Below, one piece after another: positions 1 to 5,680 of a DNA stretch of 64,000 bases (the stretch's first letter is position 1; every line of letters starts with the position of its first letter). The position numbers and the translations under genes were made by a program. Below the pieces are notes generated by a model. That model worked only from the letters and a program-made list of their open reading frames with translations. It was not told where the DNA came from and made no database searches. Source of the DNA: Enterobacteria phage vB_EcoM_IME341; sequence record MH051917; one strand, 5' to 3'.

Positions 1-88
1 GCTGCGTGTAGAAACGTTTAAAGGCCCACAGGTTGGAATGGATACGACTTCTGCTGATATCGACGACTACATTAATTCACTTAAGTAA
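1..88 (+). CDS. 3' end of upstream CDS (partial; 5' end outside window)
   Basis: frame open from window edge to TAA at 86-88; followed by hairpin terminator. Confidence 0.3.
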   Translation, partial: LRVETFKGPQVGMDTTSADIDDYINSLK

Positions 89-95
89 TGTTACC

Positions 96-120
96 GGGAG
101 ACTTCGGTCTCCCTATTTGG
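96..120 (+). terminator. putative intrinsic terminator (UUCG tetraloop)
   Basis: GGGAGAC-TTCG-GTCTCCC hairpin followed by TATTT. Confidence 0.4.
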
Positions 121-136
121 AGGAGAGGAGAATATT

Positions 137-679
137 ATGAGTTTATATGATGACCTGATATCAAATATTGATTGGTTTAAACATAGCGGTCTTTCCCATG
201 AAACTAATGCAGTTCTTTATAGAATTCGCCAAGACCTAGGTTATTCCAATGATTTCTTAAGTCGAACAAGTAGCCATGGACACACTACCAAATTGCCCTT
301 TATCTTCGCTTTAGCTGAAGACCTTTCTTTTGCAGAAGCTTTAGAAATTATTGACGTAAATCTGGGTATTCAACGAGTGGAATTCGCTGGATTATGCTAT
401 TCAGTATACGCTTTAAATGAACCAAGTGATTGTAAACAGCTTGTTGATGCTGACGATGATTACCATTTAGTATGCTATTTGATGTTAGAAAATGGTGACC
501 ACTTTGGTATGGTCGACCGCCGCCCGAGTTATTCGGATATTAAAAATTACGATAAAGATGAGCTTATTATTTTGGCTAATGAGTATACATCAGAGATTCG
601 AAAACAACAACGGAAGCTTAATCGTTTTATTGCTGAATGTCGCGAATACGCTAAAGAGGTTCAAAATGGAACGGCCTAG
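137..679 (+). CDS. hypothetical protein
   Basis: 180-aa ORF, ATG preceded by GGAGGAGAGG SD; no family recognised. Confidence 0.6.
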   Translation: MSLYDDLISNIDWFKHSGLSHETNAVLYRIRQDLGYSNDFLSRTSSHGHTTKLPFIFALAEDLSFAEALEIIDVNLGIQRVEFAGLCYSVYALNEPSDCKQLVDADDDYHLVCYLMLENGDHFGMVDRRPSYSDIKNYDKDELIILANEYTSEIRKQQRKLNRFIAECREYAKEVQNGTA

Positions 680-1019
680 TCTTTCATCACATGTTTATCA
701 ATTGGCTGAATATGATATTGCTATTTCCTTATTTATGGGAATTGTCACCGGTATGCTAGGAGGTTTGGTTGGTCTGGTAATGACCACGGTTATGGCGGCA
801 ATCGAAGGAGTCACGCCTATTGAGATGGGTTTTTATATGATAATCGCTCCGGCTGTCGTGGCTTATTTTATCCCTGTTGTGTATGATATTTGCCATACAA
901 ACGCTTTGAATGCTCCCATCCGTAAGAGATATGCTTTAGAGATGGCTAATTATAATGAGCATGTAAAACAAACTAAACGTAATGACCTTGAAATCTTTAT
1001 TAAGGAATGTAAATCATGA
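666..1019 (+). CDS. small membrane protein
   Basis: in-frame ATG at 666 (MERPSL...) overlapping previous stop; two hydrophobic helices. Confidence 0.5.
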   Translation: MERPSLSSHVYQLAEYDIAISLFMGIVTGMLGGLVGLVMTTVMAAIEGVTPIEMGFYMIIAPAVVAYFIPVVYDICHTNALNAPIRKRYALEMANYNEHVKQTKRNDLEIFIKECKS

Positions 1020-1306
1020 ATAAAATTGAAATCGAAATCCCAGAACACAACGATGAGAAATCTGCAGAAAAGGCTATCTATGCTCTTCTGAATAAAGTGA
1101 ATACCATCGAACATGAATGTGAAGCTATTGCCGATAAGTATGGTATCCAATTCGGTACCGGTGATTATGGTTCAGGCCGTACATATTATCCTGTCGGTTA
1201 TGAATGCTCCCAGTGGTTTAAAGATGAAATTGAAAACAACGGCGGTGAAGTTGAAAACGGCGTCGTTACAGTTGGTGCTTGGGTCTCCTCTTCAGCAATG
1301 TGCTAA
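1016..1306 (+). CDS. small acidic protein, W-x-SSS-x-x-C family member 1
   Basis: 96 aa; ATGA overlap with previous gene; C-terminus ...AWVSSSAMC; first of five tandem paralogs. Confidence 0.6.
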   Translation: MNKIEIEIPEHNDEKSAEKAIYALLNKVNTIEHECEAIADKYGIQFGTGDYGSGRTYYPVGYECSQWFKDEIENNGGEVENGVVTVGAWVSSSAMC

Positions 1307-1315
1307 GGAAACGCT

Positions 1316-1597
1316 ATGATGAATGATAACCATAACAACCCGGAGCTTCTGGCCGCAGTAAAAGAAATCCATGAAGCTATTCGTCGTGCTGAGGAAATTG
1401 CAGACAAATATGAGACTCATTTTAATATATACCCTGCTCGCGGTATGGGCGGTGACTATTATTCTCCTGGCGCCCTGAAAGCTGACCTGGCCCACTGGGA
1501 AGAAGATGGTCATCCTGAATGGGCTATTGTTAATACTCATGACTATACAACTGACCTGGAAAATGGTGGTTGGGTGTCCTCTTCTTCTGAATGTTAA
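1316..1597 (+). CDS. small acidic protein, W-x-SSS-x-x-C family member 2
   Basis: 93 aa; SD AAGGAA; C-terminus ...GGWVSSSSEC. Confidence 0.6.
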   Translation: MMNDNHNNPELLAAVKEIHEAIRRAEEIADKYETHFNIYPARGMGGDYYSPGALKADLAHWEEDGHPEWAIVNTHDYTTDLENGGWVSSSSEC

Positions 1598-1606
1598 GGA
1601 ATTATT

Positions 1607-1804
1607 ATGTCTCGTGAATTAGATTGTGCAATCCGTACTGCAGCCGCAGCTATTGAAAACGTTATCCAGATTTGTAAAGAAGAACGCGAAGAAGCCGATA
1701 TCTATATCGATGGTGTTCGTGACCTAGAACGACATATCACGCTTTATAACGGTTGTATTACTATTAGTGGTACCTCTTGGGTGTCCTCCTCTTACGAATG
1801 CTAA
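1607..1804 (+). CDS. small acidic protein, W-x-SSS-x-x-C family member 3
   Basis: 65 aa; SD AAGGAA; C-terminus ...TSWVSSSYEC. Confidence 0.6.
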   Translation: MSRELDCAIRTAAAAIENVIQICKEEREEADIYIDGVRDLERHITLYNGCITISGTSWVSSSYEC

Positions 1805-1813
1805 GGAAATAAA

Positions 1814-2023
1814 ATGACTATTGATGAAATTGAAAAACAAATCCGTGAATTAGTACGTAAAGGCCAGTCTGTGGCTGACGAAACAGGTCAGCACTTCCAC
1901 GCTGGTGGCGAAGAATATATTCCAGCTTCTAGTCCGGAATATGATGATTACGAATGGGTCCGTGATGACTACGGTATTCCTGAAGGTGAAGGTTTCTGGT
2001 TTAGCTCCTCTATGTCTTGCTAA
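1814..2023 (+). CDS. small acidic protein, W-x-SSS-x-x-C family member 4
   Basis: 69 aa; SD AAGGAA; C-terminus ...GFWFSSSMSC. Confidence 0.6.
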   Translation: MTIDEIEKQIRELVRKGQSVADETGQHFHAGGEEYIPASSPEYDDYEWVRDDYGIPEGEGFWFSSSMSC

Positions 2024-2033
2024 GGTGATAAAA

Positions 2034-2258
2034 ATGACTGATATTAATGAATTAGAAAAAGCGGCACTTGAACTGGCTGCACTGTATAAGAAAGTAAAAG
2101 ATATGGCTTCTGCTCAGGATTTTGGTGTTGAGCTCGATGATTATGACGGTGAAGTTCGTCTCGAAGATTGGCTGAATAGCTCTTGTTATGGTGAAGAAGC
2201 TGGTCGCACCTTCGTTGCTCGGTCCGATGGTAAAATCTGGTACCCAAGCTCATGCTAA
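2034..2258 (+). CDS. small acidic protein, W-x-SSS-x-x-C family member 5 (divergent)
   Basis: in-frame ATG at 2034 after SD AAGGTGA; C-terminus ...KIWYPSSC. Confidence 0.55.
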   Translation: MTDINELEKAALELAALYKKVKDMASAQDFGVELDDYDGEVRLEDWLNSSCYGEEAGRTFVARSDGKIWYPSSC

Positions 2259-2479
2259 AATTGAAAAAACGATACATTCGTAAAATAAACGGTCTTCGCG
2301 ATTATGCCAAAGGTTGGCCACTAAGTATTATTATGGCTGATAGACACCCACGTTATAATACCGAGATGACTTATTACAAAAAGTATGATTCGTATTGTCG
2401 GTCTAAAGCAGGCCGTTTAGATGGTTCTTACGAAGACTATTTTGGTAAAAAACCTACTCGTGTTTCGTTAGGAAAATAA
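2252..2479 (+). CDS. hypothetical basic protein
   Basis: 75-aa ORF overlapping previous stop; Lys/Arg-rich; no family recognised. Confidence 0.35.
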   Translation: MLKLKKRYIRKINGLRDYAKGWPLSIIMADRHPRYNTEMTYYKKYDSYCRSKAGRLDGSYEDYFGKKPTRVSLGK

Positions 2480-2509
2480 TTTAACCACATGGATGTGGTA
2501 GGAGGACTT

Positions 2510-2839
2510 ATGCATAAAGATTCAGTATTCAAATATCTTTTGAAAACAGATAAAGAATTCTATATGAATGGGCAAGCCTTCTTGTTCGTTCGTGGTAAAC
2601 GTGAGATGTTTTACAAATGCGACCTCTCAATGCACCATCATATGTATCACACCCATGGCGAGCCTATACTGGGGTTCTCTGGTGACGAAACTAGACGTAT
2701 AGCTATGTACTACGACCATTTTAAGCTCAATGATTGTGGTGACAACGCTCTGGTCTGGAATCCATCTTGGCGTCGTTGGGATACGGTAGACAACGATAAA
2801 TTATTTTTAGAATATTGCAGAAGTGATGTACAACTCTAA
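2510..2839 (+). CDS. hypothetical protein
   Basis: in-frame ATG 2510 preceded by GGAGGA SD; 109 aa. Confidence 0.5.
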   Translation: MHKDSVFKYLLKTDKEFYMNGQAFLFVRGKREMFYKCDLSMHHHMYHTHGEPILGFSGDETRRIAMYYDHFKLNDCGDNALVWNPSWRRWDTVDNDKLFLEYCRSDVQL

Positions 2840-2882
2840 AAATACGTGTTACTATTACCCTACACAAACATGAGGAGAACAT

Positions 2883-3122
2883 ATGTGGTATTACGCTCCG
2901 ATGTCCGATAAGTCTAATGAACCGGTACGCATTACTCGTGCCAAGTTTAAAAAGATTTATGGCTTTGCTTATAAGAAGTCTGATTACGGTGTTCGTTTTG
3001 AAGATGCTCACTGTATCAATGACCCTTATGCAGAAGAAATTTCTAATGAGATAATTCCTATCGTTGAGAGTAATTCCAATGATATGTGGGAATTGCATAA
3101 CACTTACGTTGCCGAAATTTAA
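2883..3122 (+). CDS. hypothetical protein
   Basis: 79-aa ORF, SD GAGGAG upstream. Confidence 0.5.
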   Translation: MWYYAPMSDKSNEPVRITRAKFKKIYGFAYKKSDYGVRFEDAHCINDPYAEEISNEIIPIVESNSNDMWELHNTYVAEI

Positions 3123-3141
3123 GTTTACTGAGGAAAATATT

Positions 3142-4101
3142 ATGATGCTAGTTATTGGTTCTCGCGCACTGCACCACGCTGGTCTGATTGAAAATAAGTA
3201 TATCGAAAATTCTGATTGGGATTTCATTGCCGACCAAGGCTCATGGAACCACTTTAAAGCTCGGATGTTCGGCGCCCATGTACACGTTGACAATCCTGAT
3301 GTTCAGGCTTTCAAATGTATGCATAATGGTAAAGAAACCTATTTCGAAGCTTATATCGTCCGTGCTCTGACTAACGTACGTGAAATCACTGGTGAGCTCC
3401 AAGACGAAGATTTCACCTCAAGTTATCGTCTCCTGAAATATGCTGAAAATCGTATTAAAAAGGACCGTCTTACAGGTTTCTATTGGGCTACGCCTGATAT
3501 CTGTCTGGCTATCAAAACCTCTCATCGTTTCCTGAAGAATAATCCTTTCTTCTTGAAAACTATGTCCCACATCAAATACCTTCGTAATAAAGGTATCACC
3601 CTGAATGAAGAACTCCAGGAAATTATGCTGCAGCGTCAAAAAGAAACGTTGAGCTATTCCCACCCTAAATTGGATGTAAACAAATCATCGTTCTTTAACG
3701 ATACCATTTATACGCTAGACCACGACTCTATCCATGAAGCCGTGGCATTGGCAGGGCGCCCGGCATATACCTTTTATATGAAGGAAGGTTCTGAAGTCAT
3801 GACCTCTCGTGAGAAGTTCGAGGCTTTGCCTGAAGCTATTAAACTGGCTGGTGTATATGAAGAAACTTGTGTCCTGGCACTAGAACGTTCACAGGTTCCT
3901 AATGACTTCAATATTTCACCATCATTAAGTTTCTATATGGCTCTTGAGAAAGTGTGTACCTCAATCACTTCAGGTTGGTTCCGTGAGTACGCCTGGGAAA
4001 ACTACCAAGCTGTGGTTAATATGTACAAGACTTTAGGTGAAAACGACTACATCAAACGATTCCAAGATAACCATCATTTAATTCGTCCTTTCGAAAAATA
4101 A
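3142..4101 (+). CDS. hypothetical protein (weak nucleotidyltransferase-like N-terminus)
   Basis: in-frame ATG 3142 after SD GAGGAAAA; 319 aa; N-terminal VIGSRAL...SDWDF loosely resembles G-S...D-x-D. Confidence 0.55.
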   Translation: MMLVIGSRALHHAGLIENKYIENSDWDFIADQGSWNHFKARMFGAHVHVDNPDVQAFKCMHNGKETYFEAYIVRALTNVREITGELQDEDFTSSYRLLKYAENRIKKDRLTGFYWATPDICLAIKTSHRFLKNNPFFLKTMSHIKYLRNKGITLNEELQEIMLQRQKETLSYSHPKLDVNKSSFFNDTIYTLDHDSIHEAVALAGRPAYTFYMKEGSEVMTSREKFEALPEAIKLAGVYEETCVLALERSQVPNDFNISPSLSFYMALEKVCTSITSGWFREYAWENYQAVVNMYKTLGENDYIKRFQDNHHLIRPFEK

Positions 4102-4113
4102 TTGCATAAAATT

Positions 4114-4143
4114 GTTTACAAGGTCTATAGGCATGATACTATA
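4114..4143 (+). promoter_or_regulatory. early sigma70-type promoter
   Basis: GTTTACA -35, 17-18 nt spacer, TG-n-TACTAT extended -10, then conserved GACCTATCAA. Confidence 0.6.
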
Positions 4144-4167
4144 GACCTATCAAAACAACAGAGTGAA

Positions 4168-4392
4168 ATGGAGAATAAAATGAAACTTTCTAACCAAGCA
4201 ATCAACATGTTAAACGAAGTTCGTGCAGCTGGTGCTAAATGCCTGATGGTTAACACTCGTGACGGTGACCTTCGTCAAGCATTCGGTGAATTGAAATCTG
4301 CTGACCTGGTTAAATGTTCAGTTGGTATCGGTAACGCACTTCGTGTATCCTTATCCCCTAAAGGTAAAATGTACTTTTTCAACAAAAAGTAA
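4168..4392 (+). CDS. hypothetical protein
   Basis: downstream of early promoter cassette; ATG 4168 or 4180 both in frame. Confidence 0.5.
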   Translation: MENKMKLSNQAINMLNEVRAAGAKCLMVNTRDGDLRQAFGELKSADLVKCSVGIGNALRVSLSPKGKMYFFNKK

Positions 4393-4406
4393 GTGAGGAA
4401 AATATT

Positions 4407-5093
4407 ATGAACGGTCCAAAAACTTTTAATTCTAAAGCTCGTGCAGTAGGTGGTTTCGCTGGTAAAATTTCTAATGATAAAATCAAAAACGAACCTATGT
4501 TCTTCAACAGCTCGTTGGCCTTCGCTTTTGATAATGGTGGCCCTATTACTCGCAGCTTCATCATGAACCTACCGGATGATTGGAACACTGACCGGGTTGT
4601 ATTTGATTCTCGTGTTCATATGCTGATGCCTGGCTGGTACCCTGCTATCCCAGGTTATCACCATGATGATGTACCACGTCCGGATATTCCGGTTGGCCAA
4701 CACTTTATTACCGCAGGGCAGCCTGATTATGATAATCCTCGTTACCATTCTGAACATATTCTTGGTCTTGTTAACGCTGATGTGTGTCCTACCCATTTTG
4801 CAACCGGAACTGCGCAATTTAGCCAGATTCCTGAAGGCGAACTTATCTATCGCCAGTGGCATAAAGAAGTTCTGGAAAAAATTGAGTCCAATGAATTAAC
4901 CAAGTGGGATGCTCCTGACCGCACGTTGCTCCAATTTGATTGGCAGACATGGCATACAGGTTCTCGTGCAGTAAGTAACGGTTGGCGCTGGTTTGGTCGT
5001 GTCTCTCGTAATACCGACCGTGTTAAAAAGATTACTAATGAAATCCGTGTTAATGCTCAAGTTTATCTGGAATTCCCTATGGAGGGCTGGTAA
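4407..5093 (+). CDS. hypothetical protein
   Basis: 228-aa ORF, SD GAGGAAAA upstream; Trp-rich; no family recognised. Confidence 0.55.
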   Translation: MNGPKTFNSKARAVGGFAGKISNDKIKNEPMFFNSSLAFAFDNGGPITRSFIMNLPDDWNTDRVVFDSRVHMLMPGWYPAIPGYHHDDVPRPDIPVGQHFITAGQPDYDNPRYHSEHILGLVNADVCPTHFATGTAQFSQIPEGELIYRQWHKEVLEKIESNELTKWDAPDRTLLQFDWQTWHTGSRAVSNGWRWFGRVSRNTDRVKKITNEIRVNAQVYLEFPMEGW

Positions 5094-5680
5094 TGGCCCT
5101 TTATGAACCCGGGTGTATGGGCATTGATGTAAACTTCATCCGTCGGTCGGAAAATGCCGGAATTATTATCCCAAGAGGTGAGAATATGATTATTAAAAAG
5201 TCCTGGCGAAATCTCGATGACGGTGATGAAGGAATTTCAGCCAGTACAATAGATTGGTCAGGTTGTACTGCTGAAATGAAACAGCTTTTAATTGAGGAAT
5301 ATAAAATGGGTTATATCGTAAACGGTTGGCAACCTGAACCACATAAAGAGCAGACTCCGGACCCGTTGATTTGTTATAGTAAAAAATACGGCTTTCGCGC
5401 ATGGAGTGACGAATATGACAAATTAGTGAGTTCTAGGTTCTATGTTTGGATGGGAATATTATTTTTTCCACTCCTTTGGTTTTTCCTGACAACAGATAAT
5501 GACCTGCCTATTTGTGTATTCGCTTCAGCGATGTCTGCGGCTATCTCGGGTCTTATTGCGTCATTTTTATGGACCTCGGTTATCGAAGTACCTTTTCGTA
5601 TTTCTAAAGTTAAAAAGGTATATGATGATATCTCCAAGAAAAATACATTAAACTCTTTTATTGAGGAATGCCGTAAATGA
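5093..5680 (+). CDS. hypothetical membrane protein
   Basis: 195-aa ORF (alternative start 5186); C-terminal hydrophobic helices. Confidence 0.5.
   Translation: MALYEPGCMGIDVNFIRRSENAGIIIPRGENMIIKKSWRNLDDGDEGISASTIDWSGCTAEMKQLLIEEYKMGYIVNGWQPEPHKEQTPDPLICYSKKYGFRAWSDEYDKLVSSRFYVWMGILFFPLLWFFLTTDNDLPICVFASAMSAAISGLIASFLWTSVIEVPFRISKVKKVYDDISKKNTLNSFIEECRK

Follow-up and report, generated by a model that had tools for sequence, protein, structure and literature searches.

Nucleotidyltransferases (NTases) with the polymerase-beta fold nucleotidylylate hydroxyl groups, both of small molecules such as aminoglycosides and lincosamides (ANT, Lnu) and of proteins (GlnE, GlnD, MntA). In MntA-HepT and GlnD/GlnE the hydroxyl that the NTase modifies covalently is on a side chain of a partner protein, either encoded alongside the enzyme or dedicated to it. 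Enterobacteria phage vB_EcoM_IME341 (sequence record MH051917), of which a stretch of 64,000 nucleotides was analysed (the window, to which positions given without a locus name refer), encodes five small acidic proteins in tandem, each with a C-terminal tail containing Trp, a pair of Ser and a terminal Cys. Downstream lies a gene for a protein made up of DUF7277 and DUF7275, a putative NTase. Sequence comparison across phages indicates that the tail genes and the DUF7277/DUF7275 gene are a conserved phage-specific two-gene module. While an NTase with a dedicated small partner is known in kind, this one has partners in multiple copies with a portable C-terminal tag that is unprecedented.

In MenAT1 of Mycobacterium tuberculosis, MenA1 (68 amino acids) is encoded upstream of MenT1 and blocks the active sites with its long central helix (PMC10435456). 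The likeness of the phage module to MenAT1 lies in an NTase with a small partner encoded upstream, and it extends to the enzyme only as a similar fold, as there is no sequence relationship of the phage module to DUF1814/AbiEii or MenA1. In the phage enzyme the helical lobe (DUF7275) is far larger than in MenT1 and strongly conserved. MenA1 can dispense with its C-terminus, whereas the phage partners are one to six diverged copies defined by an invariant C-terminal tail. Furthermore, MenAT1 belongs to bacterial chromosomes and the phage module to lytic phages.

As in MntA-HepT and GlnD/GlnE, modification of a partner hydroxyl by a polymerase-beta-fold NTase is the mechanism proposed here, with a tail Ser as its target. 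However, those enzymes target Tyr in a folded protein (a toxin or a signalling protein), whereas the phage proteins offer two adjacent Ser of a C-terminal tag as the candidate acceptor, and the phage partners are not HEPN, PII or glutamine synthetase proteins. ANT(2'') and LnuA act on small molecules, have no small protein partners and show no sequence similarity to the phage enzyme. RlaP (PF10127) is a polymerase-beta RNA-repair NTase of jumbo phages encoded beside RNA ligases (PMC7824862, PMC12776372). Some distant homologues of the window enzyme likewise adjoin genes for RNA ligase 2 (Rnl2), polynucleotide kinase (Pnk), a phosphoesterase or tRNAs. RlaP has no tail-tagged partner, whereas the conserved neighbour of the subfamily to which the window enzyme belongs is a small protein and not an RNA ligase. 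No description of DUF7275/DUF7277, of this tail or of a phage pair of C-terminal-Cys protein and NTase was found in the literature library searched.

Linkage of the small genes to a putative nucleotidyltransferase gene

For 42 viral loci, fetched with a sub-alignment of the small family sharing YGMGGTY, all neighbouring open reading frames (ORFs) were clustered. The sole other family common across lineages was a protein of about 309 amino acids matching the DUF7277/DUF7275 protein of the window. Its gene was downstream on the same strand, at a distance of 9 bp to 1.4 kb, in 40 of the 40 small-protein loci with sufficient downstream DNA, and the three loci without it all stop at a contig edge. 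A third cluster of apparently conserved neighbours was discarded, being made up of antisense shadow ORFs within the enzyme gene.

A further 80 viral loci were fetched with the large protein and pooled with the small-protein set to give 95 non-redundant loci, which cover 30 enzyme lineages (60% identity) on contigs of 40 to 389 kb. In this set, which consists of public viral contigs found by conserved-peptide patterns and whose enzyme-based part is biased to the CVLALER/KVCTSI subfamily, 91 of the 95 loci had at least one tail-bearing ORF (1 to 6) within 4 kb upstream of the enzyme. No copy was found in 4 loci, one in 23, two in 27, three in 17, four in 6, five in 15 and six in 3; for example, phAPEC8 has three copies, Pseudomonas phage phiPsa397 two and Acinetobacter phage Maestro one. 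Distances between enzymes were correlated with those between the adjacent small proteins (Mantel r 0.53, with 0 of 2000 permutations as high), which adds only weak support since such a correlation is expected for co-inherited genes.

Alternatively, the small proteins may be independent of the enzyme, for example acidic decoys or inhibitors of host defence or enzymes whose tail binds a host target or a metal, with adjacency reflecting inherited gene order. Their genes are in a hyperplastic early region with many accessory genes, they are small and acidic, as are many phage inhibitors, diversification in multiple copies is typical of arms-race genes, and in some lineages the enzyme occurs without them. 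This is nevertheless unlikely. Only this pair is conserved over the 30 enzyme lineages, with gene order and strand unchanged in otherwise unrelated phage backbones, and wherever DNA was available no small gene lacked the enzyme gene. Furthermore, a tail that binds a host target would not be expected to be invariant across phages of very different hosts.

The enzyme has more than 2000 homologues and its gene is carried by 732 phage records, in which nearly all labels are 'hypothetical' and a few are evidently spurious (for example, 'baseplate hub subunit'). Among 44 diverse homologues 59 alignment columns are invariant, and G6 S7, D25-x-D27 and E69 vary little or not at all across 122 homologues. 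In an AlphaFold2 model G6 S7 is where strand 2-5 ends, D25-x-D27 is where strand 26-31 begins and E69 lies within strand 64-73, and these motifs are thus predicted to occupy the positions of the polymerase-beta-type NTase motifs (hG[GS], [DE]x[DE] and a third carboxylate). Comparison of the predicted model with solved NTases gave the tRNA-modifying toxin MenT1 as closest structural match. The enzyme is therefore a predicted polymerase-beta-type NTase of the MenT/ANT structural class. The helical lobe (DUF7275) is also highly conserved, with invariant polar residues K125, H128, K139, T140, R165, H174, D193-H194-D195, H198, E240-E241, E248-R249, K270 and R281. Searches of the 44 homologues against Pfam, with E values up to 5, returned only DUF7275 and DUF7277 (neither DUF1814 nor RlaP PF10127), sequence searches of PDB with the single enzyme and with a profile gave no matches, and there was no PADLOC match.

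Two cysteines of the enzyme, C243 and C272, were considered as residues that might track the tail proteins, but gave no clean signal. C243 is replaced in 31 of the 122 homologues (by Y in 21), whose loci are nearly all tail-bearing, while both cysteines are retained in lineages without detectable tail proteins. In one of the latter lineages the enzyme ORF of a single contig is in two pieces (L112:3728-4654), which could be due to a frameshift or a sequencing error; it is intact in the relatives L107 and L119.

In the window the enzyme gene starts 1041 bp past gene 4 of the array, the last copy detected by the family hidden Markov model (HMM), and 883 bp past gene 5, the space being filled by three small ORFs found only in T4-like phages (Table 1). 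In many other phages a small gene directly abuts the enzyme gene. A scan of 1-5200 for promoters and terminators found nothing above shuffled expectation. No terminator was predicted on the + strand before 5143, which is consistent with co-transcription but no proof of it. The first of the three intervening ORFs (2252-2479, phrog_7065), present only in T4-like relatives, starts in the last codons of paralogue 5 and encodes a strongly basic protein of 75 amino acids (isoelectric point (pI) 10.0). This opposite charge and the coupling to the acidic array are suggestive.

Downstream of the enzyme gene in T4-like phages is an ORF of 228 amino acids (4407-5093; phrog_1843) which resembles RB69 ORF132c, contains a PGYHHDD segment and has no match in Pfam or, by sequence, in PDB. 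Its suspected similarity to the gene beside the enzyme of roseophage DSS3_VP1 is not significant (E 0.054). A link with the arabinosyl-hydroxymethylcytosine module of RB69 was dismissed, as that module is located elsewhere in the genome.

The C-terminal tail and its possible function

A profile search of 1.84 billion cluster representatives gave 304 proteins at E ≤ 1e-3, nearly all of 68 to 136 amino acids; some copies of 139 to 155 amino acids have additional N-terminal sequence. The tail consensus was refined to G-x-W-x-[S/A/P]-S-S-x-x-C-COOH from the 150 best representatives, one per cluster whose members share 50% identity or more. The long form W-x-x-S-S-x-x-C is at the very C-terminus in 132 of the 150, is followed by one further residue in nine and is replaced by the short form W-x-x-S-S-C in two, so that 143 have one of the three forms. 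The spacing from W to S-S is constant, while that from S-S to C is two residues in the long form and none in the short form. Upstream of the tail the family consensus consists of an N-terminal helix (..EAE.IADE.G..F.F), a YGMGG(T)YYP loop and an acidic linker containing Trp. The bodies of the proteins diverge to about 30% identity while the tail persists. Proteins of the paralogue 5 type carry two motifs, an internal W-x-x-S-S-C-Y-G-E (DWLNSSCYGEE in paralogue 5) and the terminal W-x-x-S-S-C; hence the motif is able to occur away from the C-terminus.

That the family had not been recognised in the preliminary description of this DNA is in keeping with public resources, as no curated model covers it: against Pfam, NCBIfam and PADLOC the five proteins gave nothing above noise. 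PHROG places them in two clusters (Table 1), neither of which has an assigned function; both are automatic clusters whose records mention no tail motif and no link to DUF7277/DUF7275. The same description had offered lipidation as one role for the terminal Cys, which finds no support in these proteins. They have no signal peptide or lipobox, no hydrophobic stretch interrupts their acidic, hydrophilic N-termini, and the Cys occupies the final position and not the CaaX position (-4). A role as metal ligand is possible.

A tandem arrangement of small ORFs beside a single conserved enzyme, together with an invariant C-terminal Ser/Cys motif in which Gly often precedes Trp, also recalls precursors or scaffolds of ribosomally synthesized and post-translationally modified peptides (RiPPs) or of cofactors, in which the tail would be cyclised, for example to a lanthionine through activation of Ser, elimination and addition of Cys, or would be converted into a small molecule and released, as happens to the C-termini of MftA, PqqA and TglA. 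The spacing S(-3)-x-x-C(0) matches common lanthionine and aminovinyl-cysteine rings. However, the short S-S-C tail does not fit the same ring, and the conservation is inverted, with the putative core invariant and the putative leader variable. The AlphaFold2 model of paralogue 2 (predicted local distance difference test (pLDDT) 84.5, predicted template modelling score 0.72) is a helix, a hairpin, a helix and a C-terminal strand with the Trp, ending in a flexible tail, that is, a predicted folded body in which the Trp part of the tail belongs to a beta-sheet and not a disordered leader. In addition, no LanB/C/M, radical SAM, YcaO, ATP-grasp, HFCD or peptidase gene is nearby; Pfam and PHROG scans of the neighbours in 137-5093 returned only families of unknown function besides DUF7275 and DUF7277. 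A precursor role is therefore very unlikely.

Linkage and tail conservation together suggest that the small proteins and the enzyme probably work together and that the tail is the element recognised by the enzyme. The small proteins would be diverged copies of a folded acidic protein in which the C-terminal tail is the one universally conserved element. The tail may act as a portable tag and dock in the cleft that holds the catalytic site of the enzyme, which would then transfer a nucleotidyl or phosphoryl group to one of the two invariant serines, the thiol and carboxylate of the terminal Cys helping to anchor the tail, perhaps at a metal. One enzyme could thereby switch one to six small proteins with different bodies, each probably with a different target in infection. 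The full model, in which a tail serine receives the group from the enzyme, is tentative and has somewhat less than an even chance of being right. It is favoured because this class of enzyme modifies hydroxyls of small molecules and of proteins, because one enzyme with several diverged tagged proteins is the natural architecture of an enzyme and its substrates, and because up to six diverged copies persist. As a precedent, MenT3 is inactivated by phosphorylation at Ser78 in its catalytic site (PMC10435456).

Covalent modification of Ser, as opposed to inhibition of the enzyme, is speculative, and the similarity to MenT1 can be read in the opposite sense. In this alternative the small proteins are inhibitors akin to the antitoxin MenA1, lying across the positively charged face of the active site with the tail as a pseudo-substrate plug; they would restrain a potentially toxic tRNA- or RNA-modifying enzyme, or time or direct its activity in infection. 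As with MenA1, the small genes are upstream of the enzyme gene, and their products are acidic and start with a long helix. Inhibition is nevertheless doubtful. One copy of an inhibitor would suffice, yet up to six diverged copies have long been retained, and the dispensable C-terminus of MenA1 differs from the conserved one here. The structural similarity of the small proteins to the Phd/YefM antitoxin fold is below significance, and there is no sequence match to DUF1814/AbiEii or PADLOC models. Nor is this a classical addiction or defence toxin-antitoxin pair, as the module is absent from bacterial genomes.

Several observations count against the acceptor model. Linkage of phage genes can arise from co-inheritance alone, no fusion of the small domain with the enzyme is present among the 150 best representatives, and in four enzyme lineages no tail protein was detected within 4 kb. 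The variation between two residues and none from S-S to Cys is awkward for a rigid geometry in which Cys is the anchor and Ser the acceptor, and the internal W-x-x-S-S-C of some copies implies that not every motif requires a free C-terminus. No tail protein adjoins the more distant enzyme homologues (25-36% identity, with 25-33% for L045 to L048); these are in Streptomyces phage BillNye (L045), Gordonia phage Aphelion (L046), roseophage DSS3_VP1 (L047), Vibrio phages V07 (L048) and K470, and Stenotrophomonas phage IME-SM1. The enzyme can therefore work without tail proteins, presumably on another substrate, possibly RNA. From the RNA-related neighbours of some of these homologues, the enzyme family as a whole may act on RNA, with tail proteins as a feature of one large subfamily. 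The variable spacing, the internal motifs and the tail-less enzyme lineages fit neither the acceptor nor the inhibitor model cleanly.

The enzymes of BillNye, Aphelion and V07 adjoin another acidic protein, of about 100 amino acids. The mutual similarity of these proteins is borderline (blastp E 0.003, BillNye versus V07).

The five-gene array and its junctions

At 99.9% identity the window matches Escherichia phage IME08 (Dhakavirus, Tevenvirinae), a T4-like phage, and comparison with IME08 places the array in a variable early region, with tRNA genes and e.6 on one side and e.2, nudE and e on the other. Five tandem genes for small acidic proteins with a common Cys-ending tail had been reported from the sequence alone, and all five ORFs are present at these coordinates on the + strand (Table 1).

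Table 1. Features of the small-gene array, its junction repeats and the enzyme gene (aa, amino acids; SD, Shine-Dalgarno sequence; L-numbers are loci used for comparison, L049 being a close Dhakavirus relative).
Feature	Position	Strand	Description
Paralogue 1	1016-1306	+	96 aa; tail GAWVSSSAMC; phrog_899 (E 1.4e-23), family HMM (E 6e-20)
Paralogue 2	1316-1597	+	93 aa; tail GGWVSSSSEC; mid-protein motif ARGMGGDYYSP; phrog_899 (E 3.4e-19)
Paralogue 3	1607-1804	+	65 aa; tail TSWVSSSYEC; without the middle segment; phrog_4882 (E 2.4e-36)
Paralogue 4	1814-2023	+	69 aa; tail GFWFSSSMSC; phrog_899 (E 2.2e-13)
Paralogue 5	2034-2258	+	74 aa from an ATG with SD; short tail KIWYPSSC; phrog_899 (E 4.9e-10)
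Junction repeat 1	1279-1326	+	TTGGGTCTCCTC...TGCTAAGGAA...ATG: tail codons, stop, next SD
Junction repeat 2	1570-1617	+	Left side of the L049 crossover
Junction repeat 3	1777-1824	+	Right side of the L049 crossover
Junction repeat 4	2005-2033	+	Weaker copy, TGCTAAGGTGATAAAA
Three intervening small ORFs	2252-3122	+	75 aa (basic), 109 aa and 79 aa; specific to T4-like phages, outside the core pair
Partner (enzyme) gene	3142-4101	+	319 aa; DUF7277 (residues 2-101) and DUF7275 (120-305); NTase core G6 S7, D25xD27, E69
Double-motif protein, paralogue 5 type (window)	2034-2258		Paralogue 5
Double-motif protein, paralogue 5 type (phAPEC8)	L135:2413-2631		
Double-motif protein, paralogue 5 type	L074:3709-3954		
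Double-motif protein, paralogue 5 type	L115:3432-3677		

The pI of all five proteins is 4.2 to 4.6, and in every ORF TAA directly follows the codon for the terminal Cys. No other ORF ending in the motif is present in the 64-kb window, and five adjacent ones are beyond chance. Pairwise identity is about 30%, with W, S-S and the terminal C invariant among the five, and all fit the family profile (E 1e-10 to 1e-23); the genes are thus paralogues, as had been claimed, from one ancient family. The Ser codons of the tails vary from copy to copy (TCC, TCT, TCA, AGC), so selection is on the peptide. The five genes are genuine, and orthologues of them are kept across T4-like genera and far beyond.

In the GenBank record of IME08 (HM071924) paralogue 4 is unannotated, and an over-extended orf120 (1869-2258) overlaps it in another frame. 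Contrary to orf120, paralogue 5 truly starts at 2034 with its own SD, and its orthologues have 74 to 77 amino acids. All five genes are annotated, as hypothetical, in other Dhakavirus records.

The intergenic gaps of the array are only 9 to 10 nucleotides, and TAAGGA or TAAGGT at four junctions fuses the stop codon to the next SD, just as first described. At the upstream end of the array, ATGA holds both the first codon of paralogue 1 and the stop of the preceding gene; at the downstream end, ATGCTAA holds the start of the next ORF and the stop of paralogue 5. The upstream gene (666-1019) encodes a predicted membrane protein of 117 amino acids (phrog_2330), and the ATGA overlap suggests translational coupling into the array. 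Further upstream, after a stop codon and before the SD of the ORF at 137-679, is a hairpin with a perfect GC-rich stem of 7 bp and a loop of TTCG (93-115; GGGAGAC-TTCG-GTCTCCC), which could be a terminator, a stabiliser or a piece of a mobile regulatory cassette as in the variable regions of T4-type phages.

Conservation of the junctions at the DNA level, also claimed in the preliminary description, holds for part of the array. A direct-repeat search recovered the junctions as families of 29 to 48 nucleotides with 65 to 79% identity; junctions 1 to 3 form the 48-nucleotide family. Junction 4 is weaker, and after gene 5, where the next ORF starts within ATGCTAA, there is no junction repeat. The prediction that the array expands or contracts by recombination is supported by L049, in which precisely paralogue 3 is missing, while its downstream 319-amino-acid enzyme is 97% identical to that of the window. 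Its hybrid junction has the left side of junction 2-3 and the right side of junction 3-4, with the switch inside the shared GAATG(T/C)TAAGGAA (...GAATGTTAAGGAA). As this crossover is inside a conserved junction, it supports loss or gain of units mediated by the tail/stop/SD junction. The same five paralogue types are present in several T4-like genera, in the order 1, 2, 5, 4 ... 3 in phages of Klebsiella, Kosakonia and Edwardsiella compared with 1, 2, 3, 4, 5 here, so the duplications are old.

A virion-packaging or internal-protein signal, another role suggested earlier for the tail, would suit the position of the array in IME08 between the internal-protein genes Ip9 (upstream) and ipII (downstream), and several copies have I-x-E triplets near the N-terminus. 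Helices rich in Glu would, however, be expected to contain such triplets by chance. In T4 the capsid-targeting sequence is MKTYQEFIAE, and nothing like it is present at the five N-termini (MNKIEIE, MMNDNHN, MSRELDC, MTIDEIE, MTDINEL). Since the family is also present in non-T4 phages with different head maturation systems, and packaging would leave the link to the NTase unexplained, this role is extremely unlikely.

Distribution and biological meaning

The pair is present in hundreds of phages, including T4-like phages of Escherichia, Klebsiella, Aeromonas and Acinetobacter, phAPEC8-like phages, Pseudomonas Otagovirus and jumbo phages. Homologues of paralogue 2 were found by tblastn in 280 phage records, all of T4-like phages of enterobacteria. 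A search of one genome each of 185,579 bacterial and archaeal species gave five enzyme hits, all on contigs of metagenome-assembled genomes and four of the five with tail genes. The module is almost exclusive to phages. In T4, the syntenic e.6-e.2 locus (62000-76000, L134) lacks both the tail family and a DUF7277/7275 gene and contains e.3-e.5 instead. Thus, the module is one difference between the Tequatrovirus and the Dhakavirus/Mosigvirus groups.

The module may constitute a protein-tagging system, in which a MenT-like NTase nucleotidylylates or phosphorylates the eight-residue tag W-x-x-S-S-x-x-C on diversifying small effectors and so switches them during infection; in this complete form the proposal is possible but uncertain, with the chances leaning against it. 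Such a system could be linked to the tRNA or RNA biology of the relatives of the enzyme. A conserved enzyme with an NTase fold and an invariant tag on fast-diverging proteins make a concrete hypothesis that can be tested cheaply. Should the tag be an acceptor, phage infection would involve a new kind of protein modification, and the tag, being short and transferable, would have clear potential as a tool. Should the small proteins be inhibitors, lytic phages would provide the first case of toxin-antitoxin-like control over a MenT-type enzyme inside such phages. Both partners are 'hypothetical' in the records sampled, a few spurious names aside, and in either case about 2 kb of such genes in many phages that are candidates for therapy would become one functional unit.

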